IMG/VR virus record: IMGVR_UViG_3300028048_002144
Reading direction: 5' to 3' (one strand)
Source of the DNA: a virus
Lineage: Duplodnaviria > Caudoviricetes
Length of the DNA: 64,000 bases
In this document: positions 14,225-63,997 of the stretch, piece after piece
Numbering within the stretch: the first letter of the stretch is position 1
Layout: each line of letters starts with the position of its first letter
Made by a program: the position numbers and the translations under genes
The notes under the pieces: generated by a model
Told to the model about the DNA's origin: nothing
Databases searched by the model: none
The model's input: only the letters and a program-made list of their open reading frames with translations

Positions 14225-15460
14225 CTAAAATCCTTTAATTCTGAAGTTTTGCTCTTTCTGGTTTCTATTATATGAATTCTTATAATATTCTTGAATCCTT
14301 GCTTCAACATCATCTAGGTTTTTGCAGAATTCTTTATTGATTTCTTTTTTAGCATCATCAGATAGATATGCGTAATTATATAAATCATTCATTATTTCAT
14401 CTAAAGTATTATTTGGAAGTAACCTAGATTTATATTCAGCAAATTTACCGGACTTATATAAGTATTTTTCACGTTTTTTAAATATCTCAGTCTTTTTAGA
14501 GTGTTCTTGATAGAATGATTCTGGGAAAAAGGCATTTCCAAAATCAAAAAGTGGTGCTGGGCCTATATAATCTCCAGTATTTACATCTCTCAAGAAACCA
14601 AAATTACCTAAATGTCTATCGAAGTTCATAGTCAGTCTATCAACGATAATCATTTTGTCTATGAATTCTTTAGCATGTGGGATCTCAAAACGTTCTATGC
14701 ATCTTATAAGAACATCATAAGTATGTTCTGCAGTATTTTGCATTTCTTCTTTTTTTAAAGGAATCTGCCTATATAAATACCATGCTGGTACAAATTCAGT
14801 ATTCTCATTTACGAAATTTTCGCAGATACTACATACTTCATATCCTTCTATACGTAGTTCATATTTAACAAAATCAATAATATTAATCTTTCCTAATAAC
14901 TTGCTTACAAGATACTCATTTAAAGGTTCCTGGCAAAAATCTTTAGACATACTCTTTATCAAATAGTTTTTACCGTTTTCCTTAACCCATTTTTTCTTTA
15001 GTAGGCCATTAGTAGTTAACTCTGGTGCATTATGGTCCAAGTTTATTCTAGGCAGATTAACGATATTTTTTGAGAATGTAGTATCACCAAATACTGTTTT
15101 AAAATTATTGGTGAAAAAGTTGTATTTATCCCATGTTTCAGTATCTCTGTATTTAACCCAGTATTGATCAGTCATAGAAAAGAAATGTGGTTGTGTGCTA
15201 TCTGGATCCCAGTATACACTTTTACCAGTAGGGAAGTCATATCTGTTTTCTGAAATGATCCTTTTCTTAAACCAATAATTTAAGGCTTCAACACATTCGT
15301 TTGCATCAATAATACAAGGTGGTGCTAATTTCTTATTTATTATTTCTGCTTTATCAATATGAAAATATGGAATGTTTAATGCATTTCTTTGTATTTCGCC
15401 ATTTAATTTTACCACTTCTGTATTTTTATTCATAAGTGTTGCGGATATTTTATTTGCCAT
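14225..15460 (-). CDS. HipA/CtkA-family Ser/Thr kinase
   Basis: PELTTNGLLKKKW, YLIK, EPLNE, catalytic NFDRHLGNFG and APLFDFG motifs. Confidence 0.85.
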   Translation of the reverse strand: MANKISATLMNKNTEVVKLNGEIQRNALNIPYFHIDKAEIINKKLAPPCIIDANECVEALNYWFKKRIISENRYDFPTGKSVYWDPDSTQPHFFSMTDQYWVKYRDTETWDKYNFFTNNFKTVFGDTTFSKNIVNLPRINLDHNAPELTTNGLLKKKWVKENGKNYLIKSMSKDFCQEPLNEYLVSKLLGKINIIDFVKYELRIEGYEVCSICENFVNENTEFVPAWYLYRQIPLKKEEMQNTAEHTYDVLIRCIERFEIPHAKEFIDKMIIVDRLTMNFDRHLGNFGFLRDVNTGDYIGPAPLFDFGNAFFPESFYQEHSKKTEIFKKREKYLYKSGKFAEYKSRLLPNNTLDEIMNDLYNYAYLSDDAKKEINKEFCKNLDDVEARIQEYYKNSYNRNQKEQNFRIKGF

Positions 15461-43648: not shown

Positions 43649-46054
43649 CTACGAGTTGAACTTGAATTTTAACATGCTTTTTTCTCCATTCTTTTCAAGG
43701 ACTAATCTTGCTTTGAATTTTTTACCGGCTTTAGAAACAAAACCACTTAATTCTTTTGTCTTTCCTTTTTCGATTGCATCTCTTAATTCGTCATTTGTTA
43801 ATCGTCTCTTACATACATTGGCCCAGAGCGTAAAATCACAAGAAGGGCAAGATACTTTATCACCTTGTCTTTGTAATTCTTCCATACAGTCAGGGCATTG
43901 AATTCCTATGTCTACTTTTTGAGCTTGTATAAAATCTAGTTTACCTTCAGTTGCATTAAATTTTAGTTTTTGCATCCAAGTTGCACTTTTATCTTTTTTA
44001 GTAAGCTTCTTCTCTACTGTATTGCCATTAAATAGATTAATAGCATCTTCTTTAGTGAATGTAGCTCCTAGAAAATTCTTAATTAGAGTATATTTACAGC
44101 CATCACTATAACCTAAACAATAGAAGTTTTTAGGGCCTTCCATAATATCTTTTCCACATGAAGGGCATGTCATGATTGGCTCTTTTTTATAATTATTTGC
44201 ATCACCATAATATGTTTTATTGACAAGTTTTATTTCATTAATCAGTTTAACGGTTTCTTCCTTCATTATCTCTTCGCCAGCAGCTAAGGATAACTCTCCG
44301 TTTCTGATTTTTAATAACATCTGCTCCCAATGTCCAGTAGTGTCTATATTACATAGGGATACATCATTTATAGTATGAATCATAAATGATCCAAAATCGG
44401 TTGGTACAAGATTATTCTTAACTCGCTTAATATATTTATCTTTTATAAGCTTTTCGATAATTCCAGCTCTGGTTGCTGGTGTACCGATACTTAAATCTTT
44501 AATATCTTCTTTAATAGTTTTATCAGTTAAGTATTTAGTAGGATTTTCCATAGCCGCAATAAGTGTACCATCAGTGAAACGTTTAGGCTTCTGGCTTATT
44601 TTTTCAACCTTATCGAAGCTACTAACTGAATATGTTTCTCCCTCATTAACGAGAGGAATCTCAATATCATTTACTTTTGTTTCAAGGAATTCAGTAAAAC
44701 CTTTATCTACTACTATTTTTCCAGATGATCTAAATAAATATTTATTACCGTTATAATCTTCTACTTCAGATATAACTGTAGTTTTATCCTGGATAAGAGG
44801 TAACTGGAATATGGCTAAAAACCTTTTTACGACCAGACTGTAGATATCTAATTCTTTATTAGATAACTGCTCAAGATCTGGCTTTTCTGTTGTAGGAATA
44901 ATAGCTGAATGTCCATGCTTTTTTAATTCTGCATCATTAACATATTTCTTAATGCTTTTTACATTAGAAATTCTTGTAGATGCAAATGCAACTTCTTTAG
45001 AAAATTCCATAAATGTTGCACAAGATGATAAAATACCTCTAAAATTCTCATTAGAAGATATAACTTCACAATCAGTTCTAGGGTAAGACAGTAAATGCTT
45101 TTCATACAGACTTTGGATAATCTCCAGAGTATCATTAGCTGAATAACCTAGTTTAGCTGCATCCATCTGTAGAGTTGCCAGTTTATATAATTTAGGGGCA
45201 AAAGATGTTGTTCTCTTTTTATCTACAGATATAATCTTACCGCTATCATTTAAAGTATCAATAAGATCTCTTACAGATTCCTCTGTATCGAATACTTTTA
45301 CTCCAATTTGATTATTAGTTTCTTCATCTGAAACCGTTTCTTTCTGATCTTCGTAAAGATATCCGCTTAATCCATTAGCATAATTTACATTTAATCCATA
45401 TGTAGTTTTAGGAATGAAATTTATAATTTCATCTTCTCTTTTTACAATAGTTGACTGAACCGCAGTCATTACTCTTCCAACTGCGATAGTATTTCCTTTA
45501 GCATATAATCTATTTCCTAATGCTCTTGAACCATTCATACCAAATCTGTAATCAGAATGCTGTCTAATTAAGGCAGCAGCCATAAGATTTTTGTACATAG
45601 GTTCATCATCGGATTTTAGATTCTTTAGAGCATTTATAATTCCATCTTGAGTTGTATCATTTGCCCAGAATCTTAGTACGGGAAGTTTATTATTAAATTG
45701 CTGTAATACTAGATTAACTAACAATTCACCTTCCTGGTCTGGATCTCCTGCATGTATAATTACATCATACTTACCAGAAGTGGCCATTTTCTTAATTTCT
45801 TCGTACTGTTTTTTGGTACTCTTTTTTACTTTGTACTGCCAGCCACCTTCATTCTCAGGCTCTATTGGTAGTAATTTTTCATCCCAGCTAACATAAATAG
45901 GATTCATTTCAGCTGGATCTTTTAACTCAATTAAATGTCCAAACTGCGCAGTAAAATCAATATCATATTCGATATCTTTTGCGCACTTTTTATATGCTCT
46001 TTGAATATCTCTCATTAGAGAGGGTTTTTCTGCTATTAATAAAGCTTTTTTCAT
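43649..46054 (-). CDS. topB: Type IA DNA topoisomerase III
   Basis: IAEKPS, GHL, DPDQEGE, GRV, YPRTD, HSAIIPT, IGTPATRA; C-terminal Zn ribbons and Toprim_Crpt-like repeat (GFVSKAGKKFKA). Confidence 0.92.
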   Translation of the reverse strand: MKKALLIAEKPSLMRDIQRAYKKCAKDIEYDIDFTAQFGHLIELKDPAEMNPIYVSWDEKLLPIEPENEGGWQYKVKKSTKKQYEEIKKMATSGKYDVIIHAGDPDQEGELLVNLVLQQFNNKLPVLRFWANDTTQDGIINALKNLKSDDEPMYKNLMAAALIRQHSDYRFGMNGSRALGNRLYAKGNTIAVGRVMTAVQSTIVKREDEIINFIPKTTYGLNVNYANGLSGYLYEDQKETVSDEETNNQIGVKVFDTEESVRDLIDTLNDSGKIISVDKKRTTSFAPKLYKLATLQMDAAKLGYSANDTLEIIQSLYEKHLLSYPRTDCEVISSNENFRGILSSCATFMEFSKEVAFASTRISNVKSIKKYVNDAELKKHGHSAIIPTTEKPDLEQLSNKELDIYSLVVKRFLAIFQLPLIQDKTTVISEVEDYNGNKYLFRSSGKIVVDKGFTEFLETKVNDIEIPLVNEGETYSVSSFDKVEKISQKPKRFTDGTLIAAMENPTKYLTDKTIKEDIKDLSIGTPATRAGIIEKLIKDKYIKRVKNNLVPTDFGSFMIHTINDVSLCNIDTTGHWEQMLLKIRNGELSLAAGEEIMKEETVKLINEIKLVNKTYYGDANNYKKEPIMTCPSCGKDIMEGPKNFYCLGYSDGCKYTLIKNFLGATFTKEDAINLFNGNTVEKKLTKKDKSATWMQKLKFNATEGKLDFIQAQKVDIGIQCPDCMEELQRQGDKVSCPSCDFTLWANVCKRRLTNDELRDAIEKGKTKELSGFVSKAGKKFKARLVLEKNGEKSMLKFKFNS

Positions 46055-46470: not shown

Positions 46471-46524
46471 AATGTTCTCCTTATGAAAATGTTGTCTATT
46501 ATGTTAAAGTGTACTCAAATGTGC

Positions 46525-47766
46525 TTACACTGCATTGTCAAACCAATATATCTTTGAATATTTCCAAAGTAGTTTGCATTTTTTGGCATTAACCTTTTTA
46601 CAATGTTTTGTAGGACTCTGAAAATTCAAAGCATTTAACTTTGGATAAAGTGCGGTTACGTAACCTCTATGAGTTTCACCATTTTTGAAGGTATATTCAA
46701 CTAAATCTCTATGTTTTATACTTAAAACGTTATCCGTTTTAGCTTTACTTTGCCTACGTATTGGTTTTATTATCCATTCTATAATATCTGTAGTATCTGG
46801 TTTTAGATCTGTTATACAGATAGCATCGTTCGAATGTGATTTTTCTATATCCCAGTCAATGCGTTTATTTGCAGTATCACCACCATTTGTTAAATGTAAA
46901 ATACCAAGTTCTGATAACTGTTTTCTCAACCAATTTTTACCTATCATTACATGACTTGCATAATTAAGATTTTTATTATCAGAAGAATTAAGCATATTAA
47001 AATAATGTTTCATATACTGTTCTTCTTTGCCTTCTGTCTTTTGGTGGCAATCACTACATAAAGTTATGAGATTATCTAATGTATTAGAACCGTTAAGTCT
47101 TCGTGGTTTTATATGATGTACTTCCAATACAGTATTAGATTTACCACATTCCATACATTTGTGGCCATCACGGAAAATAACTGCTTTACGAATATTCTCA
47201 TCTAAACGATTTGATTTTTGATATTGCCAATTATAAGGTTTATAACCATCTGTTAAGGCTCTTATATCAATAGCAACATCTTCGAGCCAATAATTGGTAA
47301 TATTAATCCATTTATTCAGATGGTATATTACTCGCATTGTAGCTTGTCGTTTTTGTAAAATACTTGGTGCTATTCTCCCGTTTCGTTTAGATGATTTACG
47401 ATTATAAAATCGTGCCTTACGATATCTTTTTTGATATCTGTGATATCTACGATAGCTTCTGCGAACATCCATAAGATGCTTTACGTCATTACGCTGTTCG
47501 ATTGTACCTTTAAATAAAACCTTATTCTTAGTTTGACATTTCTGCACTAGAGCTATACCTGCATGTAATCCACCATCATCAATACCAAGGCGAATTTCAT
47601 CTTTACAGATTTCATCATTAGGAATAACTCTATTGAGTTGTATTACCATAGGATATTTAGATACGAGTTTCGCTTTGCCTTTTCGTATCATATACCACGC
47701 TTTAGTTTCTTTCGTTGGGCTTAACTGCTTACCGTCAGCGTCCAACACAAAACTATAATTTGTCAT
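46525..47766 (-). CDS. iscB: RNA-guided endonuclease IscB
   Basis: PLMP-like QLSP, RuvC-I LGIDDG, Arg-rich bridge helix, RuvC-II WLED, HNH (CMECG...EVHHI...[10 protein letters not shown]) and RuvC-III HSNDA. Confidence 0.92.
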
Positions 47767-47769
47767 TTC

Positions 47770-48087
47770 TGACCACCTTCCTTTCGGAGAATTGTTCCTC
47801 GTGCCAATGACAGAAAGAAGTGTTTATGTTTCGCTGTTTGCACCACAGGACATTAGTGGTGTTTCTTGCTTGGCAATCACAGAGCAACGGACTGAGAATA
47901 CATCCGAGGGTGTGTCTTTAACTTATCTCTCTATCGTAGTTCATCATGCAGAGTAGCTTTCGCTATCAGCACTCACTTAGGCTCGAAACCTACTGTTAAA
48001 TTCATGGCTCAAAAAGCTTAATTGTGTCCACTTTTGAGTATGTTTAAACATATATTGCTATGTTTTTAATTACTTAACAGTTAGTCC
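47770..48087 (-). ncRNA. omegaRNA-like guide scaffold of IscB element 1
   Basis: Non-coding structured leader with AGCCTAAG, ACTACG, GGATG...TCC..GCTCTG and CATTGGC.CGAGG segments similar to element 2; first helix 48074-48084 pairs with 47990-47999. Confidence 0.7.
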
Positions 48088-48918
48088 TTATTCGTGAATA
48101 TAAACTGGCGTTCCTACATCTACATTTGCATATAGATTTTTCATTACAGAATATGGTGTATTAACACAGCCATGTGATCCGTTCCTATGATAGATATTGC
48201 CACCAAATGAACCTCGCCAGGTTGCGTCATGTATGCCTATTCCGCTTCCAGTTAATCGCATCCAATAATTTACCCAGCTACTATATCCAGGGCCTTTGAG
48301 AGTCTTCCCAGGCACTTTTGAAGTAATATAGTAAGCTCCTACAGGTGTTTTAGTTGTATCTTTACCCGTTACAACAGATGTTTCTATTACAGGGTTATAA
48401 ATATTGTTTTTATTTTTCTCGTATAGATACATTTTCTGGTTAGAAATAGATACTTCTATATATTTGTTAGCTGGATAATCGCTATATCTTATTGGTTCTC
48501 TATTAGCTAAAGATTCATGCTTTAAAAAACATTCTTTTAAATATTTAATCTCAGCCTTCTTATCTATATCTAATAGGGTGCCTTCGGTTATTAGCGAATC
48601 CTCACCAGACATTGTTTTAAAGGGTATAGGTTTCTTATCAAAATCTATTTTTTCTACTTGTTCATCTATAAATGATAAATCTGTATTTTTATAATCCTTT
48701 TCATTAAGAATCTCTGATTCCACTTTCGCCCCATTAGAATACTCACACACCCATTTGAAAAGTTTAGGTTTTTCTTCTGATTTATTCTTCTTGTCTAAAT
48801 TTTCAATATTATTAGTGTTTACGTATGGGCTAATATTTTTACTATGGAATCTATATACTTGTATAAGAATACCTAGCAATAACAAACCGATAATTATATA
48901 TTTGATATAATTTTTCAT
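48088..48918 (-). CDS. L,D-transpeptidase (YkuD family), membrane-anchored
   Basis: IEVSISNQKM, VVTG...TPVG, GIGIHDA.WR and catalytic GSHGCVN. Confidence 0.92.
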   Translation of the reverse strand: MKNYIKYIIIGLLLLGILIQVYRFHSKNISPYVNTNNIENLDKKNKSEEKPKLFKWVCEYSNGAKVESEILNEKDYKNTDLSFIDEQVEKIDFDKKPIPFKTMSGEDSLITEGTLLDIDKKAEIKYLKECFLKHESLANREPIRYSDYPANKYIEVSISNQKMYLYEKNKNNIYNPVIETSVVTGKDTTKTPVGAYYITSKVPGKTLKGPGYSSWVNYWMRLTGSGIGIHDATWRGSFGGNIYHRNGSHGCVNTPYSVMKNLYANVDVGTPVYIHE

Positions 48919-48968
48919 CTATTTCTTAGCAGGATACCCTGGCTTTTATAAGCCGAGGATGAATGCGA

Positions 48969-50219
48969 TTAAGCACACTCCATGCTTCTCCTTTCCGTAA
49001 GATAACTATTAGGTGTATACAGATATTTTAATTTTTTATAACTGATATTACCCTTATTTACTTTTTCTCTCTGTAGATTTCTTATATCAAAAAATCCGCT
49101 AGTTCTTCTTCCAAAAACGAAATACTCTTTGTCATCAAAGCTTACCTTATCGAATAGCCTGAATCCTTTTACCTTATATTCAGCTTGATTATTCTTGCGT
49201 ATACCGCCTTTATTAATCTTATACTTATGTATCTGCCTGTTATGGCAGCGTATTTTCTTTTGATAATATACATATCCCAGAGGCTTAGCTAATGGGTTTT
49301 TGCTGATACATCTGGCATCTATATAGTGCTCTTTAGGAAGGTTATTTTTTATACGAGTATTTTTAGTTATATATCCGTATGTAAGACTTACATTCGGATA
49401 AGTCTCTTTTAACTTGTTGTAAAACGCCCATCTCATTATTCCCATAAAAGTAGCATCTTTAAAACTCATGCCACGTTTGATAGTCTTTGGTAGTTTTACG
49501 GTTCCTTTGTGGTACCCTTTATGACAAGTCTCACATAGAGTAATAAGGTTATTCGGTGCATTTCCTCCAGTTTTTCGGCTTTCGATATGATGTACATTAA
49601 GAATTTTATCCTTTGACTTTCCTTTGCAACACTGGCAAATGTGACCATCTCTGGAAAGCACATATTCTCTAACATTCCAAAAATCTAACTGTTCACCTTG
49701 TTGATACTCTGTTCCACTTATGGTGGGATTCTTAATCTTTTGAATGTCAAAAGACGCAACTTCTACGATTATTCTTGTGACAGGAAGTATTTTGTATACA
49801 TCCTCAACAACTTTTAGGTGAGTATCTACTTTTGCCTGTACTGAAGGTGCAAGCCATCTGTCAGATCTTTTACGGTTATTAAATTTTGGTTTTCTGTATC
49901 TTGTTTTACGATTTCGTCTTGTTCTGCGAGCTTCTCTGCGTGTAGAAAGTAAATTCACAATATCATTTCGTAGTTCTACATCTGCAGCATATAGTTCTTT
50001 ATCAGTAGTAGTTGCTGACACGCCTATATGTTTACTGCCTGCATCAATACCTAAAGATACATCCTGAGTATAAGTCGTACTCTTATACATTAATTGTATT
50101 GTAAACGGACATCTTTTAATTACTTTTGCTTTACCTTTGTTAAGTAATCTGCGTACTTTGCCACATCTATTTGTTGGCATTAATGGTTGTCCGTTTATAT
50201 CTAATACATATACCAACAT
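48969..50219 (-). CDS. iscB: RNA-guided endonuclease IscB
   Basis: QPLMPT, GIDAGSK, RREARRTRRNRKTRYR, IIVE, HNH (NVHHIESR...NLITLCETCH) and HYIDA. Confidence 0.95.
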   Translation of the reverse strand: MLVYVLDINGQPLMPTNRCGKVRRLLNKGKAKVIKRCPFTIQLMYKSTTYTQDVSLGIDAGSKHIGVSATTTDKELYAADVELRNDIVNLLSTRREARRTRRNRKTRYRKPKFNNRKRSDRWLAPSVQAKVDTHLKVVEDVYKILPVTRIIVEVASFDIQKIKNPTISGTEYQQGEQLDFWNVREYVLSRDGHICQCCKGKSKDKILNVHHIESRKTGGNAPNNLITLCETCHKGYHKGTVKLPKTIKRGMSFKDATFMGIMRWAFYNKLKETYPNVSLTYGYITKNTRIKNNLPKEHYIDARCISKNPLAKPLGYVYYQKKIRCHNRQIHKYKINKGGIRKNNQAEYKVKGFRLFDKVSFDDKEYFVFGRRTSGFFDIRNLQREKVNKGNISYKKLKYLYTPNSYLTERRSMECA

Positions 50220-50544
50220 AGATTTGGCTCCTTTCTGTAAATTACTGATATGTTTATTGCTATAAGCCGGTACATATCAACCGTAATGCAGCCTTCGCCA
50301 ATGTTATTATGAGGTTTTTGTAAGCAACACCGTTCCTACCCATTAGAACTGTTTAATCACTTATCTTAGAGCTGCAGACTAGGCTGAACATCCACAGGTA
50401 ACTATACATAACAATGAAACTACTAATGTTTCATTGTATATTCTCACATAACGTAGTCAGTTAAGACTTAGGCTAGTCAACAAAGGCTTTTACAAGCCTC
50501 CACTTCAACAATTATAAAATAATCGCAAGTGGTGAGTTATTGAC
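50220..50544 (-). ncRNA. omegaRNA (HEARO-like) of IscB element 2
   Basis: GTCAA.../...GTTGACTAGCCTAAG helix, GACTACGTT and AACATTGGCGAAGG segments upstream of iscB. Confidence 0.8.
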
Positions 50545-52502
50545 CCTACTCGTAGGTTTTGATATACCGTTTTATCTTCAATATTTCTGATGAAGATATT
50601 TGCAGTTCCAGGAATGTATTCTCCGTGGAAAAGAATACTTCCAGGGACCATTAGATAGAGTCTTTTCTTTGCTCTAGTAATCGCTACATACCAGAGTCGC
50701 AAGGACTCTTGAAACTCGTCCTGTGATATAAAACTGCTTTCTCCAGGGAATATTCCGTCTATGCAGTTCTGGACAAAGACATGTTCAAACTCAAGACCTT
50801 TAGCAGAATGTATAGTGCTTATAGTTAATGCATTATCATCTTTCTTCTGATCCGGTGTTCTGTCTAGGGTAAATGCATCTAACATTGATTTAATGCTTGT
50901 ATAGTCATTTGCAATTTCTAATAAAACCTTTATAGTCTTCTTATCATTTTTAATTGCATCAATCTGCTTTTCTTTACTGCTCTCACTTGATCTTGAAAGA
51001 TTTACTTTTTCTTCGGCCATTGAGAAATAGAATTCCTTTATTTTATTAAGCTGGGTTTTGTAATCAGAGTCTTTTAATTCAATATAAAAATTATGAAGAT
51101 CGTTTAAATATGGTTTAATACTATTAAGATGTGAATATGGATTATCAATAATAAAATTATCTCTTTTACAATCACAGGCAATTACTTTAGAACGTTTAGT
51201 TCCTATTTTAGGTAGAACGTCTAATACACTAAACCAAGCAAGTTCATCATATGGATTAACAATAATCTTACAGAAGTTTAGGAAATCAATTACGCATTTA
51301 TGCTCTAAAAATTTGAGTCCACCTAGCTTTTTATATGGAATTCCTTCTTTGTCCAAAAGGAGTTCTAGCTTATAACTTTCTTTTGATGTACGACTTAAAA
51401 CAGCTATATCTTTTACTGTATTATTTGCGTAGAAGTAATCTTTGATGAAGTTGAATTCGTATTCTAATTCATCTCTATCAGTGTCTAATAACACACACTT
51501 TGGCTTACTCTCGTTATCTGTATATGTGCCGATCATTTCTTTATCAAAGTTATTAATATTACTAGAATTAAATGACTGATTAGCAAACTCTACAATTTCA
51601 TTTGATGAACGATAATTCGTTTTTAGAACTGTAGTAATACATTCTGGGAAAGTATCCTGGAATGATAAGATGTTTCTTACATCAGCTCCTCTAAATGCAT
51701 AGATACTCTGCGCATCGTCACCTACTACAGTAATATTCCTATTCTTACTACCAATAAGCTTTATGATTTTAGCTTGTAGTATATTAGTATCCTGGTACTC
51801 ATCTACCATAATGAACTTATATCGAGTAGCTATTTTATTTAATACTTCTTCGTTCTGAAGTAATTCATAGAACTTTACCAGCAGATCATCATAATCAAGC
51901 ATTCTATTTTCTTTTTTATATTCATCATATTTAGTTTTTAACTGTTTTATGTATGCAATGACTTCTGGGTAAATGTCTTCATAAGAGTTAGAAACCTTTT
52001 TAGGAATAATTTCCTCGAAAGTTCTTTCTGTATTTATATGCTCAGAAATACAAGCTATGATCTTATTAGTATTTAATCCTTTAATCTTGTTTCTATCGCC
52101 AAAATCTTCTTTTATAAAAGACATCGCTGTTACAGTTTCTGGTGGTGTTAGAATAGAAAAATTACTCGAAACACCAATAAAGCGTCCATATTTTCTTAAC
52201 ATAAGCGCACAAAAAGAATGATAAGTACAGGCAGTGATTTGCTCTGTATTATCACCCTCATAATTTTCTAGGTTCTTCTTTATTCTTTCCTTCATTTCAT
52301 TAGCAGCTGCATTTGTAAAAGTAAGAAGTAATATTTCTTTTGGTGTAGCTACTTTTTCTGAAAGTAAATACGATACTCTTGTAGTAAGAGTGTGTGTTTT
52401 TCCAGAACCAGCTCCGGCTAATATTAAAAGTGGTCCATATGTATGTGTAGCAGCTTTATACTGCTCTTTATTTAATCTTGATAACGTTTCTTTTATGTTC
52501 AT
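50505..52502 (-). CDS. UvrD/PcrA-family helicase
   Basis: AGAGSGKT, LTFTNAAA, VDEYQDTN, VGDDAQSIYAFRGA, NYRS, TIHSAKGLEF and YVAITRAK. The last 12 codons lie inside IscB element 2. Confidence 0.93.
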   Translation of the reverse strand: MNIKETLSRLNKEQYKAATHTYGPLLILAGAGSGKTHTLTTRVSYLLSEKVATPKEILLLTFTNAAANEMKERIKKNLENYEGDNTEQITACTYHSFCALMLRKYGRFIGVSSNFSILTPPETVTAMSFIKEDFGDRNKIKGLNTNKIIACISEHINTERTFEEIIPKKVSNSYEDIYPEVIAYIKQLKTKYDEYKKENRMLDYDDLLVKFYELLQNEEVLNKIATRYKFIMVDEYQDTNILQAKIIKLIGSKNRNITVVGDDAQSIYAFRGADVRNILSFQDTFPECITTVLKTNYRSSNEIVEFANQSFNSSNINNFDKEMIGTYTDNESKPKCVLLDTDRDELEYEFNFIKDYFYANNTVKDIAVLSRTSKESYKLELLLDKEGIPYKKLGGLKFLEHKCVIDFLNFCKIIVNPYDELAWFSVLDVLPKIGTKRSKVIACDCKRDNFIIDNPYSHLNSIKPYLNDLHNFYIELKDSDYKTQLNKIKEFYFSMAEEKVNLSRSSESSKEKQIDAIKNDKKTIKVLLEIANDYTSIKSMLDAFTLDRTPDQKKDDNALTISTIHSAKGLEFEHVFVQNCIDGIFPGESSFISQDEFQESLRLWYVAITRAKKRLYLMVPGSILFHGEYIPGTANIFIRNIEDKTVYQNLRVGSITHHLRLFYNC

Positions 52503-57663: not shown

Positions 57664-58812
57664 TTAAAAATTTACCTTCTGGAATCTATATGTCCAGAGA
57701 TTAGCTTTAAAATCACCAACCTCATCTGCAGTAGATACTAAAATAGCTCTTTCTGCTAGATTACCAGCACCATCTCTTATAAAACATCCATTGTGGTTTC
57801 TATTATGCCCTGTATTACCTGGACCAATAGCAGCCACTCTATTCCATCCAACACCTTGTAAGTCTCCTAAATCACCATTCCAAGACGTTACATAGATACT
57901 CTGGGTCTGGGAAATATTAGATAATGCACCAGCAGGGAACATGTAATTCACATGTGTATCACAAGTCATATATAATTCATCACCACTAACAGCAAAATCT
58001 GCATTACTGATAAAATCTCCACCCATATTTCTTACTGTTACTGGTTGAGATAGATTTACACTAGTTAGATCATTAGATATAAGTTCTCTACATAGAGTAG
58101 AAGTAAGTGAAGTAGTTCCTCTTGTATAGAAGAGAAATGTCTTACCATTTTTAGTTAAAAGTGAAGGTTGACCTACGCCCCAACCACCTTCAGTTCCAAC
58201 TACTCTTCCTACTTTTGTCCAGTTGTAAAGGTCATTTGATACTGCAAAGCCTATTTCATTATTTGTACAGTCATAAGTTCTACATCCAAGATATGCCATC
58301 AGATAAGAGTAATTACTTCCCTGGAATGAAAAGTTCCCAGATATTACTGATGGATCACAAACCTGTACACTATCCCATGCTCCAGGTGTTGTAGTAAGAA
58401 CTCTTCTACCATTTAAACTAATACCATCTTTTATCTCTCCAGGAGTAGCTTCGTTAGAGCAATAAAGAACTGTTCCATTTATAACTGTAGGACAATATTT
58501 ATACACATATCGCTCTACTTTTTGATTAACCGAAGGAGTTCTTGTATTAGTCTTTCTAAATGTAATCCTTTTAGAAGGCGTACTTTTACTTACTTCTTTT
58601 ACTTCTGCTATAGGTTTAGCATCTTTTAAAAGTGGATTTTCTTTTTTACTTACCTTTTCTTTAACAGAGGGTTTATTTGTAGATTCTGTCTTTGTTTCTA
58701 TTTTTTTATTACTACGTTGGTTTGTTTTAACAACAAAAACAGATAATGTAGATATTCCTATAATTATTAATAGTAACTTGATTAGATTTTTGCGGCATAA
58801 AAAATTCTTCAT
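57664..58812 (-). CDS. Exported glycoside-hydrolase-like five-bladed beta-propeller (GH43/32/130-like)
   Basis: N-terminal TM and linker, then WDS..VCDPSV, IGFAVSNDLYNW and GQPSL blade motifs. Confidence 0.6.
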   Translation of the reverse strand: MKNFLCRKNLIKLLLIIIGISTLSVFVVKTNQRSNKKIETKTESTNKPSVKEKVSKKENPLLKDAKPIAEVKEVSKSTPSKRITFRKTNTRTPSVNQKVERYVYKYCPTVINGTVLYCSNEATPGEIKDGISLNGRRVLTTTPGAWDSVQVCDPSVISGNFSFQGSNYSYLMAYLGCRTYDCTNNEIGFAVSNDLYNWTKVGRVVGTEGGWGVGQPSLLTKNGKTFLFYTRGTTSLTSTLCRELISNDLTSVNLSQPVTVRNMGGDFISNADFAVSGDELYMTCDTHVNYMFPAGALSNISQTQSIYVTSWNGDLGDLQGVGWNRVAAIGPGNTGHNRNHNGCFIRDGAGNLAERAILVSTADEVGDFKANLWTYRFQKVNF

Positions 58813-60620: not shown

Positions 60621-61304
60621 CTACATTTCAAGTGTTACATTTTCATCTAAAGTTACATTCTCAGATACTTTTGTCTTGCTGTTATAACCAGATACATAAT
60701 CATAAAACTCTGCACAAGCAAGAGCCATGTATGGCATAGTGAAGAAAAGATTAAGAATATTAAGTGTAAACATACCAAGGATTGCCCAGCCAATGAATGA
60801 TAACTCAAGTACGAAAAGATGCCACTTATTTCCATGCATCATCTGTCTGGACTCTGTAATTACTTCTTTCCAATTCTTATTTGGATCCTCTGCTAAAATA
60901 TAAGGAACCATTGCATATGAGAAACATTTTACATATGCTGGAATAATAAGAAGTGACCAAAGGAGATAAAAAAGACCTGTCATGAACATTGTAAAAGTAA
61001 TGTTAAGCCATTCCTTACCCTTGAAATAAGCAAATAGTTCTTTCTTTGTTACTTCGATTCCTCTGTTCTTCTTCATAATGTATGAAACCATACCAACACC
61101 CATTGGACAACCAATAAAGATTGAACACAGTGATAAGATCGAAAGAATTGGAACAATACTTCCAAGAATTCCTGCAACAGTACCAACGATCGCACCACCT
61201 ATCATACTAACTACAAGCCCTAGCATGATAACTCCGACAATCTGGAGACCACATTCCTTTCTAACAGATTTTGCTTTGTTTTTAATTGCTTTTCTCGAAT
61301 ACAT
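60621..61304 (-). CDS. DUF975 family membrane protein
   Basis: LWSLLIIP...SYAMVPYILAE.P...SRQMMHGNKW.LFVLELSFIGW. Confidence 0.85.
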   Translation of the reverse strand: MYSRKAIKNKAKSVRKECGLQIVGVIMLGLVVSMIGGAIVGTVAGILGSIVPILSILSLCSIFIGCPMGVGMVSYIMKKNRGIEVTKKELFAYFKGKEWLNITFTMFMTGLFYLLWSLLIIPAYVKCFSYAMVPYILAEDPNKNWKEVITESRQMMHGNKWHLFVLELSFIGWAILGMFTLNILNLFFTMPYMALACAEFYDYVSGYNSKTKVSENVTLDENVTLEM

Positions 61305-61705: not shown

Positions 61706-62341
61706 TTAGTTGCCACTTCTTTTTGTTACTTTATAACTATTTGCAATCCCTTCTAATAGTCTATAGTTACAGTGATACCTTTTTATAACACCAGTAACTA
61801 CTTGTTTATTATATATAGTATCTGCTTTTTGCTCTATTTCTTTAATTATTCTTCTACAAAAAAGATACTCTTTTCTCATCAGAATACGTCTTTTTTCTTC
61901 ATCGGAATCTTTAGAAGGCTGGTCTAAATCAATAATCGTATAAACTCCATCTATAACAGGGAACATCTTTTTTATCTCTAAAACAGAAAGTAATCGCTTT
62001 TGATAAAACTGTCGCTCTTCCTCTGGCACTTCCATTTTATCAAGTTTAAACTCACCAACAGACAATAAAATATCGTTCTCATCAACTGGTGTATTCCTAA
62101 TATCAATAATTTCATATACCCTAAAATTTGTCGGGCCTACATCCTTCCAATTCCTGTGTTTTTCTTTTGCAGATGTCAAGGGAATTACATATTGATAACC
62201 ATCGTTATTTACCAAAATCCCTAAATGTGGCTTTTTATTATAGTTTCCCTCCGGATCATACATAACTTCTTTATCTGCATCGTGCAATGTTGCCAGATAG
62301 TTTATATCGATATAAACCATCTTAAAATCTGTTAAATTCAT
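61706..62341 (-). CDS. toxN: Type III toxin-antitoxin toxin, ToxN/AbiQ family
   Basis: YIDINYL...KPHLGIL...YVIPLTSAKEKH...MFPV; lies downstream of tandem RNA repeats and a terminator. Probable start MNLTDF at 62341. Confidence 0.88.
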   Translation of the reverse strand: MNLTDFKMVYIDINYLATLHDADKEVMYDPEGNYNKKPHLGILVNNDGYQYVIPLTSAKEKHRNWKDVGPTNFRVYEIIDIRNTPVDENDILLSVGEFKLDKMEVPEEERQFYQKRLLSVLEIKKMFPVIDGVYTIIDLDQPSKDSDEEKRRILMRKEYLFCRRIIKEIEQKADTIYNKQVVTGVIKRYHCNYRLLEGIANSYKVTKRSGN

Positions 62342-62356
62342 AATTCTCCCCTTTGC

Positions 62357-62390
62357 AAAAAATATGGGAAGCCTCAAGAAGCTTCCCATA
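62357..62390 (-). terminator. Terminator between toxI repeats and toxN
   Basis: TATGGGAAGC...GCTTCCCATA hairpin followed by a U tract on the minus strand. Confidence 0.85.
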
Positions 62391-62848: not shown

Positions 62849-63997
62849 TTAGTGATTAAGATAATACAAAGGTAAGTGTAATGCTGTCGAGTAATAAGTT
62901 TTTACTTTCCCTGTTCTAATTGCTTCCTCAAGAGTTGCTGGGAAATCATTTATCATATTGCCTTCTTCTCCATACCACAATTCATTTCTTTCTCTCTGAT
63001 ATTCTGCTTCGTTTTTAATGGCATATTCAGCCTGATTATGAGAATATGCATTAGGAAGAATACTTCTTGCTCCCATATGTTTTGAAGGAACATCACCATA
63101 ATGAAGAATTTCTTCTGTTCCATCCTGGTAAATGATTTTTATATCATTATATGGATCATTTCTGTTAGTATTATATTTTGAGCAAGCTGCTGAACCCCAT
63201 TTATAATTAGGCCAATCTTCATTAATTAATGCTTCGTAATCACATTCACGGAACCAAGCTTCTTTATCAAAACCACTATTGTTACCATTATTTGCGTTAC
63301 CAGATTTGGCAGCCTTACCGCTCTTAGTACCCTTAGTACCCTTCGCACTCTTAGTAGCACCATTTGGTGTATTAGTATCAGTTGTAGCTTCTGTTGTAGG
63401 AGTCTCTACTGCACTATCCTTTGCAGTGATATATTCCTTAAACTTGTTTTCAAGTTCAGATGTAATATCATAAAGGGCCTTTACAGATGTATCCTTTGAG
63501 ATTACATTCTTTTTAGTTTCGCCAAACTTACCGTCAAGGCTATTGATAGTCTTAGTCATAGCATCATCAAAGTATGTATTATCGTTGTCATACTTTGCAT
63601 GCCAGTAATCCTTAAACAGACGTTTACGTTCATCATCTGCCTTGTCGACATCAGCCATGAGATCCTTCCTTACTGACTTCTGAAGATCACGAAGCTTATT
63701 CATTTCATCCTGAGTAAGAGAAAGCTTGATGTCCTTATTATTATGTGCTTCTGTTTCAGCAGATACATATTCATCAAGCTGGGCAAGGATTGGTTTCTTA
63801 TACTTATCGTCTCTAATAGAGTTGTTAAGCATTCTTCTGATATCCTTATTGATGCTAGTTACTTCCTTGTAAGTAACATCTTCTGCGGATACATCCTGCT
63901 CTACTCTATAATTGTGGTAAGTTACTCCACCACCTACAGCTCCACCAGCAACAGCAACTGTTACTACTCCAGCTGCAATCTTCGTTTTAAGTGCCAT
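62849..63997 (-). CDS. Exported/membrane-anchored protein with low-complexity linker
   Basis: N-terminal hydrophobic helix, helical domain and T/K/G/N-rich linker. Confidence 0.7.
   Translation of the reverse strand: MALKTKIAAGVVTVAVAGGAVGGGVTYHNYRVEQDVSAEDVTYKEVTSINKDIRRMLNNSIRDDKYKKPILAQLDEYVSAETEAHNNKDIKLSLTQDEMNKLRDLQKSVRKDLMADVDKADDERKRLFKDYWHAKYDNDNTYFDDAMTKTINSLDGKFGETKKNVISKDTSVKALYDITSELENKFKEYITAKDSAVETPTTEATTDTNTPNGATKSAKGTKGTKSGKAAKSGNANNGNNSGFDKEAWFRECDYEALINEDWPNYKWGSAACSKYNTNRNDPYNDIKIIYQDGTEEILHYGDVPSKHMGARSILPNAYSHNQAEYAIKNEAEYQRERNELWYGEEGNMINDFPATLEEAIRTGKVKTYYSTALHLPLYYLNH

Follow-up and report, generated by a model that had tools for sequence, protein, structure and literature searches.

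IS607-like ends on a non-autonomous IscB element inserted at a Shine–Dalgarno motif in a Caudoviricetes genome

Canonical IscB elements belong to the IS200/IS605 group (for example, ISGst5): an RRXRR–RuvC–HNH protein is preceded by a HEARO-type omegaRNA that abuts the flanking DNA, the ends are hairpins, the AT-rich target-adjacent motifs (TAMs) are shared with the Y1 TnpA transposase, and most copies are non-autonomous (PMC10055086). The omegaRNA side of such elements is the right end, and iscB adjoins a Y1 tnpA gene only rarely (~1.5%; PMC10055086). IS607 elements, which carry a serine transposase gene, tnpA(S), together with TnpB, have neither terminal inverted repeats nor target duplications, and instead possess an imperfect subterminal inverted repeat, unequally spaced from the two ends, with GG in the termini and the target (PMC6188088). 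The IS607 TnpBs of gut Firmicutes use, as determined by experiment, the TAM 5′-AGGAG in 18 of 22 strains (PMC11061315). Published surveys link tnpB, not iscB, to IS607 serine resolvases (PMC10055086; PMC10691335), and the literature that we searched, including the main papers on OMEGA transposon associations, gives no description of IscB elements with IS607 ends. Here we analyse an IscB element (element 1) in a 64,000-nucleotide stretch (the window) of the viral record IMGVR_UViG_3300028048_002144 (Duplodnaviria; Caudoviricetes), in which a second IscB element (element 2) lies one gene away. Judged from sequence, element 1 is probably (at a probability of roughly 0.7) a non-autonomous IscB element bounded by IS607-type ends and mobilized in trans by an IS607 serine transposase. 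This reading draws on the similarity of the ends, on AGGAG junctions that equal the TAM of IS607 TnpBs, on an IS607-like architecture and on the lack of a Y1 TnpA in four phage records.

Homology between element 1 and its relatives breaks off at one common pair of points in ~80 loci: 55 IMG/VR viral loci (54–88% IscB amino-acid identity), 15 bacterial-genome loci (Fusicatenibacter, Sharpea, Eubacterium, Coprobacillaceae, Selenomonas, Bacillus taeanensis and others) and several relatives in Staphylococcus Twortvirinae phages (55–61%), identities ranging from 52 to 88% overall. In the window these points fall at ~48087–48092 and ~46477–46498, matching a preliminary description of this DNA that had noted ATAAGGA on the minus strand at both ends (found at 48091–48085 and 46484–46478); the minus strand is the coding strand of every gene around element 1. 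The junction consensus is ...(A)GGA|CTAAY for the left flank and ...AGGA|G for the right end. That is, the left flank ends in GGA, mostly AGGA, immediately 5′ of CTAAYTGTTAAG, and the right end continues into AGGAG. We counted 25 distinct insertion sites, in unrelated genes, with GGA terminating the left flank in 21; distant relatives (52–62% amino-acid identity), including three B. taeanensis copies, keep AGGA(G) at both junctions. The boundary had earlier been called ambiguous within the 7 bp. The crossover point is indeed ambiguous, within AGGA; the 7 bp are not the core, only (A)GGA being systematic. Aligned as AGGA^G, the junctions would leave GG or GA as the exchange core.

The start codon of an open reading frame (ORF) of at least 40 codons lies 7–13 nt past the GGA in 30 of 30 right junctions, so every copy sits inside the Shine–Dalgarno sequence of a co-oriented gene. 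At the other end, the first 15 nt of the element (CTAACTGTTAAGTAA) contain a stop codon in each of the three frames. Because the last bases of the element (...AGGA) and the flanking G rebuild a ribosome-binding site, and the opposite end stops every frame, damage to the operon should be limited. In the window, the ldt stop codon TAA (48090–48088) is itself part of the left ATAAGGA copy. Insertion at a ribosome-binding site with little polar damage may explain why such elements are tolerated in dense phage and plasmid genomes.

Empty alleles were found at three independent sites, and each describes an insertion after the AGGA of an AGGAG, which answers the proposal of the preliminary description to align the ends of homologous iscB loci and look for unoccupied alleles. 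Staphylococcus phage phiSA_BS1 (empty) and JDF86 (occupied) have flanks that are 99% identical; the former has a single AGGAG, ...CCTATAAAGGAGAAAAGAC, and in the latter AGGA stands on either side of the element. The site occupied in locus L010 is empty in nine viral contigs, which read a single TTTTTAAGAAGGAGG. At the third site, that of L035, seven empty contigs (L206–L212) read AGGAG-N12-AGGAG; the occupied allele has the element between the first AGGA and the second AGGAG, with the intervening 11–17 nt missing. The upstream ORF of L035 has its last four codons replaced by an element-encoded LIVK-stop. For the ldt/121-aa gene junction of the window we predict an empty allele of ...CACGAATAAGGAGAACATTATG. 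That allele was not found: exact-protein look-ups with the 121-aa gene and ldt returned nothing beyond the 205-kb contig itself and a 3-kb contig of the same occupied layout, scans of viral and metagenome collections with both proteins gave no relatives, and no DNA near-identical to the window was found in the phage collection. Copies lacking flanking or inverted repeats beside a Y1 TnpA, or an empty allele at odds with the earlier reconstruction, were not encountered.

We took as genuine IS607 elements those with an NF033518 TnpA above 200 bits followed by tnpB; tnpA was found at 67 viral loci, and tnpB accompanies it at 60 of these. AGGAG directly adjoins the left ends of the IS607 elements, with the motifs TAAGTAAYY-AAAA and TGTTTAAAYATACTCAAA 6–7 bases further on, and their right ends carry an inverted copy, TTTGAGTATATTTAAACAC. 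The left ends of the IscB elements show both motifs at the same distance from AGGA. Searching 194 kb of IscB loci with a profile built from five IS607 left ends only, 28 of the 30 best hits fell at an IscB left junction in register (best E value 7e-4) or at a right end in inverted orientation, and none of the top 30 lay on element 2. When 1136 AGGA-anchored 60-mers of IS607, Y1, resolvase and window origin were ranked by their match to IscB left ends, IS607 left ends took the first seven places, ~5 standard deviations above the mean. A blastn-short search of 585 kb of non-IscB DNA with the left 77 nt of the window element gave 29 hits, of which 16 are IS607 left ends in the same orientation, six are right ends inverted and one is unrelated. 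The left-end motif of the window element is 19/20 identical to the IS607 left end of L162, at an equal distance from AGGA. The IS607 in contig 3300000302_000049, a phage contig that also contains IscB locus L026, matches the IscB left-end motif at 19/20. Two subtypes of IscB ends, ACTCAAA/TTTGAGT (the window, L031 and L069) and AGACAAA/TTTGTCT (most others), parallel two subtypes of IS607, the L121 and L162 types.

The inverted repeat of the preliminary description, 48052–48029 against 46523–46500, does match at 19 of 24 positions (core 48050–48031/46519–46501) and coincides with the IS607-type subterminal repeat. Its two copies lie at unequal distances from the ends (34–53 nt on the left and 18–41 nt on the right); in 18 of 20 relatives the right copy is found at one constant place, 38 nt from the right end, and left and right copies covary at class level (permutation p 0.018). 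Element 1 shows the hallmarks of the IS607 family in its ends: an imperfect subterminal inverted repeat and short motifs at unequal distances, no terminal inverted repeats, no fixed duplication, a G-containing core in termini and empty target, and, by the profile, anchored and blastn tests alike, kinship to the ends of elements that encode a serine TnpA.

The cargo is that of an OMEGA system. IscB (413 aa) has RRXRR and HNH domains, and upstream of the gene lies a HEARO-type omegaRNA whose first helix, P1, abuts the flank. The claim that this helix starts right at the junction held up well: 48084–48073 pairs with 48000–47989, 89% of positions being paired in 21 sequences with three compensatory pairs, against 28–47% in slid controls. 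P1 encloses ~60 extra nucleotides that hold two hairpins, one of which (48042–48031 with 48016–48003) has seven compensatory pairs; the insertion accounts for the low score of the HEARO model (37 bits) and for its alignment starting at 48021. The RF02033 match is accordingly below the gathering score of 83, compared with 114 bits for element 2; the mean column identity of the scaffold is 85% across 21 relatives. The IscB proteins of the two elements share just 33% identity. Element 1 also lacks, as had been noted, the GC-rich hairpin of element 2: the 3′ end of the latter folds at −6.6 kcal/mol, and the ends of element 1 form weak AT-rich hairpins of −3.4 to −4.4 kcal/mol (z −0.35 to −1.4).

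Set beside the AGGAG-TAM group of IS607 (ISFba1, ISRin and ISEre1; PMC11061315) and the ends of IS607/IS1535 (PMC6188088), element 1 has the same junction motif, the same absence of terminal repeats and a subterminal repeat, with the left-end motifs TAAGTAAYY-AAAA and TGTTTAAAYATACTCAAA common to both at equal distance from the boundary. Each kind of element inserts between the Shine–Dalgarno sequence and the start codon of genes in its own orientation, and the phages and hosts in which the two are common are the same. They differ in cargo: omegaRNA and the Cas9-like IscB, with a 5′ guide on the left-end side, as opposed to tnpA(S) and TnpB, with a 3′ guide on the right-end side. The IscB element is without a transposase, its right end is ...AGGA and not ...GCAG, and its left-end motifs are embedded in a guide-RNA helix. 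From canonical IscB elements, ISGst5 and element 2 included, the clade differs in its AGGA(G) junctions, IS607-like subterminal repeats and the ~60 additional nucleotides in P1, in place of AT-rich TAMs and hairpin ends.

A plausible course of transposition can be sketched from these features. A serine TnpA of a group-A IS607 (tnpA(S) plus tnpB), residing in the host or on the same replicon, would bind the subterminal repeat motifs, and the element would be excised as a double-stranded circle and inserted by short-core exchange within AGGA^G. In low-GC Firmicutes and their phages this motif is almost always a Shine–Dalgarno sequence, so the element would land between the ribosome-binding site of one gene and the gene upstream, co-oriented with both. 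Read-through from the upstream gene, here ldt, would transcribe the omegaRNA, its guide being the flank just 5′ of helix P1; we infer that the last codons of ldt would template it. This guide would lie 5′ of the scaffold, on the left-end side, and an IscB-type 3′ TAM would fall on the AGGAG of the empty site, and AGGA would either close the guide or open the scaffold. The geometry mirrors that of IS607–TnpB, where the right-end flank templates the target and AGGAG lies on the 5′ side of that target. IscB–omegaRNA would cut empty alleles (target followed by AGGAG...) and spare the occupied junction, which reads AGGAC, a self-avoidance resembling the TCGG/TGGG discrimination of a clostridial IS607 (PMC10690162).

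Extended to the whole IscB clade, which inhabits gut-Firmicute phages, phage-plasmids, prophages, Staphylococcus Twortvirinae phages and Bacillus chromosomes, the proposal would be that it swapped IS200/IS605 for IS607 ends, relies on serine transposases of IS607 acting in trans and has AGGAG both as target and as IscB TAM; we put this at about even odds. For part of IscB diversity, an IS607-ended clade gives a concrete, testable answer to the question of how these elements move. OMEGA cargo modules and transposon ends would then be exchangeable between the two superfamilies. The model predicts a compact IscB with a TAM at or beside AGGAG, either AGGAG itself or a G-initial motif immediately 3′ of AGGA, that discriminates against AGGAC. 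The clade would also exemplify operon-neutral insertion, with all-frame stops at one end and a replacement Shine–Dalgarno sequence at the other.

The preliminary description had suggested a different enzyme acting in trans, such as an IS607-like serine recombinase at a GG core, a tyrosine recombinase or a DDE transposase. The end match, the AGGAG motif and the IS607 architecture favour the first, at a GG-containing core. Its proposal to identify the recombinase in autonomous copies yielded none: no tnpA(S)–iscB copy was found among the 74 IscB and 67 viral IS607 tnpA loci. A serine transposase with an N-terminal MerR-like domain, as IS607 elements encode, is absent from the element, the window and the 74 loci, and the element is therefore at most a non-autonomous IS607 derivative. 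IS607 TnpA (NF033518, >200 bits) is present in three of five element-carrying host genomes, against ten of 121 genomes sampled from the family of genome G005, and in three of ~11 IscB-bearing phage records. Around the chromosomal and distant copies the neighbours are ordinary housekeeping genes. Several other candidates were discarded. In phage Golestan101-M, the 'transposase' close to the IscB copy is a TnpB. The small resolvase/invertase genes of two phage records and of host genomes are over 10 kb distant, their catalytic domains are N-terminal and their scores fall short of the IS607 cut-off.

Several observations weigh against mobilization by IS607. Within 4 kb of the 74 IscB loci there is no serine TnpA, iscB stands beside none of the 67 viral IS607 tnpA loci, the window contains no IS607 TnpA or TnpB homologue, and several element-bearing phage genomes that appear complete encode no IS607 TnpA. 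The phage contigs of L027 and L031 have IS607 copies of their own, but these are no cognate partners: their TnpA is of another group (37–39% identity) and their ends are unrelated. Individual end matches are short and AT-rich, with modest E values (best 5e-4 to 7e-4), and the shared left-end sequence is probably in part the tnpA promoter. An IS607 right-end profile hits IscB ends weakly (best E value 0.083), and the argument therefore leans mostly on the left end and on the inverted-repeat motif that both kinds of element share. Group-A IS607 right ends stop at ...GCAG and not at ...AGGA, which puts the crossover register off by 1–2 nt. The loss of 11–17 nt at L035 is not predicted by a single conservative exchange; it requires that the ancestral allele was a different one or that the stretch between the AGGAG repeats was deleted secondarily, and is partly unexplained. 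Finally, close relatives are single-copy per genome, and a Silviavirus relative, next to which the start of the adjacent gene is duplicated and recoded, resembles the insertion of a homing gene.

Among the IS607 loci themselves (L121–L205), the right end of group A is conserved up to ...GAGTRGCAG and the next two bases vary by copy, and the 6–7 nt from AGGAG to TAAGTAA are hypervariable even where TnpA is >90% identical. Their exchange core, to judge by these alignments, may be AG rather than GG.

The single copies and the Silviavirus relative bear on an alternative in which the ends are IS607-derived, transposition has been lost, and the element spreads only as an RNA-guided homing endonuclease gene, IscB cutting the empty allele during co-infection and recombination copying the element across. 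Single copies per genome in close relatives mean that present-day spread may be mostly homing, and no copy has a linked transposase. Identical sites recur, in groups of four to ten contigs per site, as homing would have it, and the small deletion at L035 relative to its empty alleles points the same way. In Silviavirus phages VL10 and MRSA28 (L058/L062), compared with Romulus (L061), a 55%-identical IscB lies between two overlapping genes; ~19 bp of target occur on both sides as an imperfect duplication, the right copy of which recodes a serine (AGT to TCG) and rebuilds the start of a resolvase gene, a pattern typical of homing endonucleases and like that of free-standing homing genes. Such genes of lytic phages (T4 seg/mob, PMC13565253) are likewise intergenic, co-oriented, present or absent between near-identical phages and without a transposase; the differences are that recognition here would be RNA-guided, that junctions are base-precise at one motif and that the ends carry recombinase-type repeats. 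We nevertheless consider homing alone unlikely. At least 25 distinct sites in unrelated genes with base-precise AGGA junctions call for site-specific insertion and not homologous copying, the conserved and covarying subterminal repeats at both ends indicate ongoing selection for recognition by a recombinase, and B. taeanensis has three copies at different chromosomal sites. Homing and transposition are in any case compatible with each other.

Two kinds of reduced copy were seen. Eubacterium ruminantium (L080:3959–4106) has a 148-bp element made of the left and right ends only and flanked on both sides by AAAGGA; a proliferating miniature inverted-repeat transposable element was considered, but it is single-copy in its genome, a fact that homing alone would also accommodate, and hence a deletion derivative. 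Viral contigs L054 and L055 hold copies without most of iscB.

A second alternative is a conventional IS200/IS605 element served in trans by a Y1 (HUH) TnpA, in which TCCT on the opposite strand is both target tetranucleotide and right-end cleavage site and so mimics a direct repeat. It predicts the same empty site as exchange at a GG core, and sequence alone cannot separate the two on that count; this is the usual type of IscB element, the omegaRNA being at its right end (PMC10055086), Y1 TnpAs are encoded in five of five host genomes, and small conserved hairpins lie near both ends. Even so, it is highly improbable. A Y1 TnpA (Y1_Tnp) is missing from four phage records, of which two are ≥98% complete, and from the 4 kb around every locus. 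The TAMs of Y1-mobilized elements are AT-rich (TTCAT, TTTAT, TTGAT and TTAC) and not TCCT, and the junction here is AGGA(G). IS200/IS605 elements use same-strand hairpins, whereas these ends are an inverted repeat with weak hairpins, and the sole GC-rich terminal hairpin of the region belongs to element 2. The ends match those of IS607 and not Y1 decoy loci; with the Y1 loci of B. taeanensis, the similarity to IscB element ends is limited to 8–10-mers. In Sharpea azabuensis (G006:C40:6771–7112) a Y1_Tnp domain lies within a 632-aa open frame and may be a TnpA fusion.

The 7-bp direct repeat of the window is a shared 3–4-bp core with a variable extension, and no fixed-length target duplication. 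Repeat length varies from 2 to 12 bp among sites, the extension past GGA from 0 to 9 nt across 21 sites, and per-position match rates beyond GGA are slightly above background. The extension averages 2.38 nt for cognate and 1.43 nt for non-cognate pairs (permutation p 1e-4), and the extra ATAA of the window has a chance expectation of roughly 6%; the surplus of long matches is best explained by a preference for targets similar to the element's own right terminus. L049 and L010 occupy the same site, with right ends of ...AATAGGA and ...AAGAAGGA, respectively, and the right terminus of JDF86, ...TTTTAAGAAGG, is clearly missing from the empty allele; the right-hand AGGA copy thus belongs to the element. 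A DDE or tyrosine-recombinase element with a true target-site duplication is scarcely credible, for although 7 bp flank the window copy and 6–12 bp some others, the repeat has no fixed length, barely exceeds chance per position beyond GGA and is not accompanied by terminal inverted repeats, and the differing termini of L049 and L010 make its right copy element and not duplicated target, so that these two enzyme types, named as options earlier, find no support.

The features of the locus are collected in Table 1.

Table 1 Element 1 and its surroundings, in order along the minus strand
Feature	Position	Strand	Basis or remark
UvrD-type helicase gene	50505-52502	-	upstream-most
IscB element 2	48969-50544	-	HEARO RNA 50283-50544 (114 bits); iscB 48969-50219
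ldt, L,D-transpeptidase (YkuD), upstream gene	48088..48918	-	Pfam YkuD, E 3.9e-24
Left-flank ATAAGGA (target DNA, remnant of the original AGGAG Shine–Dalgarno/target motif)	48085..48091	-	
Mobile element (element 1), 1607 bp, CTAAC... to ...ATAAGGA	46478..48084	-	breakpoints in ~80 loci; empty alleles
omegaRNA helix P1, 5′ strand, from the first element base	48073..48084	-	pairs with 48000-47989
IS607 left-end-like motif TTAAGTAATTAAAAACATAG	48058..48077	-	19/20 to the L162 IS607 left end
Subterminal inverted repeat, left copy TGTTTAAACATACTCAAAAG	48031..48050	-	matches IS607 left-end/right-end repeat; 5′ strand of the inserted omegaRNA hairpin
HEARO-type omegaRNA scaffold, divergent member	47787..48021	-	Rfam RF02033, 37.1 bits, E 1.4e-5
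iscB, intact, 413 aa	46525..47766	-	Pfam RRXRR, E 4e-47; HNH, E 9.8e-13
Subterminal inverted repeat, right copy TTTGAGTACACTTTAACAT	46501..46519	-	resembles IS607 right-end motif TTTGAGTATATTTAAACAC
Right terminal ATAAGGA	46478..46484	-	with the next G rebuilds AGGAG, Shine–Dalgarno of the downstream gene
Downstream gene, 121 aa	46105..46470	-	no Pfam family; insertion is into its ribosome-binding site
Type IA topoisomerase gene	43649-46054	-	downstream of the 121-aa ORF

Element 2 looks like a conventional IscB element of the IS200/IS605 type, one gene away from the IS607-type one. Its HEARO RNA starts within the 3′ end of the UvrD-helicase ORF, whose frame continues ~13 codons into the element to a stop at 50505; at its other end, a GC-rich hairpin lies just 5′ of the ldt start codon (48919–50560, minus strand).

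Both ends of the ENA contig k141_863469 (205,255 bp; L225, L056) fall inside the iscB of element 1, so the replicon is circular and was broken there by the assembler. A 29-nt self-match at 61263–61291 lies inside a DUF975 coding region and was judged to be chance. Two paralogous 382-aa ORFs (57664–58812 and 62849–63997) have no Pfam family. The same replicon encodes a weak HipA-like kinase (14225–15460, minus strand; 28.6 bits, under the Pfam cut-off) and a ToxN-family type III toxin (61706–62389, minus strand; E value 3e-32).

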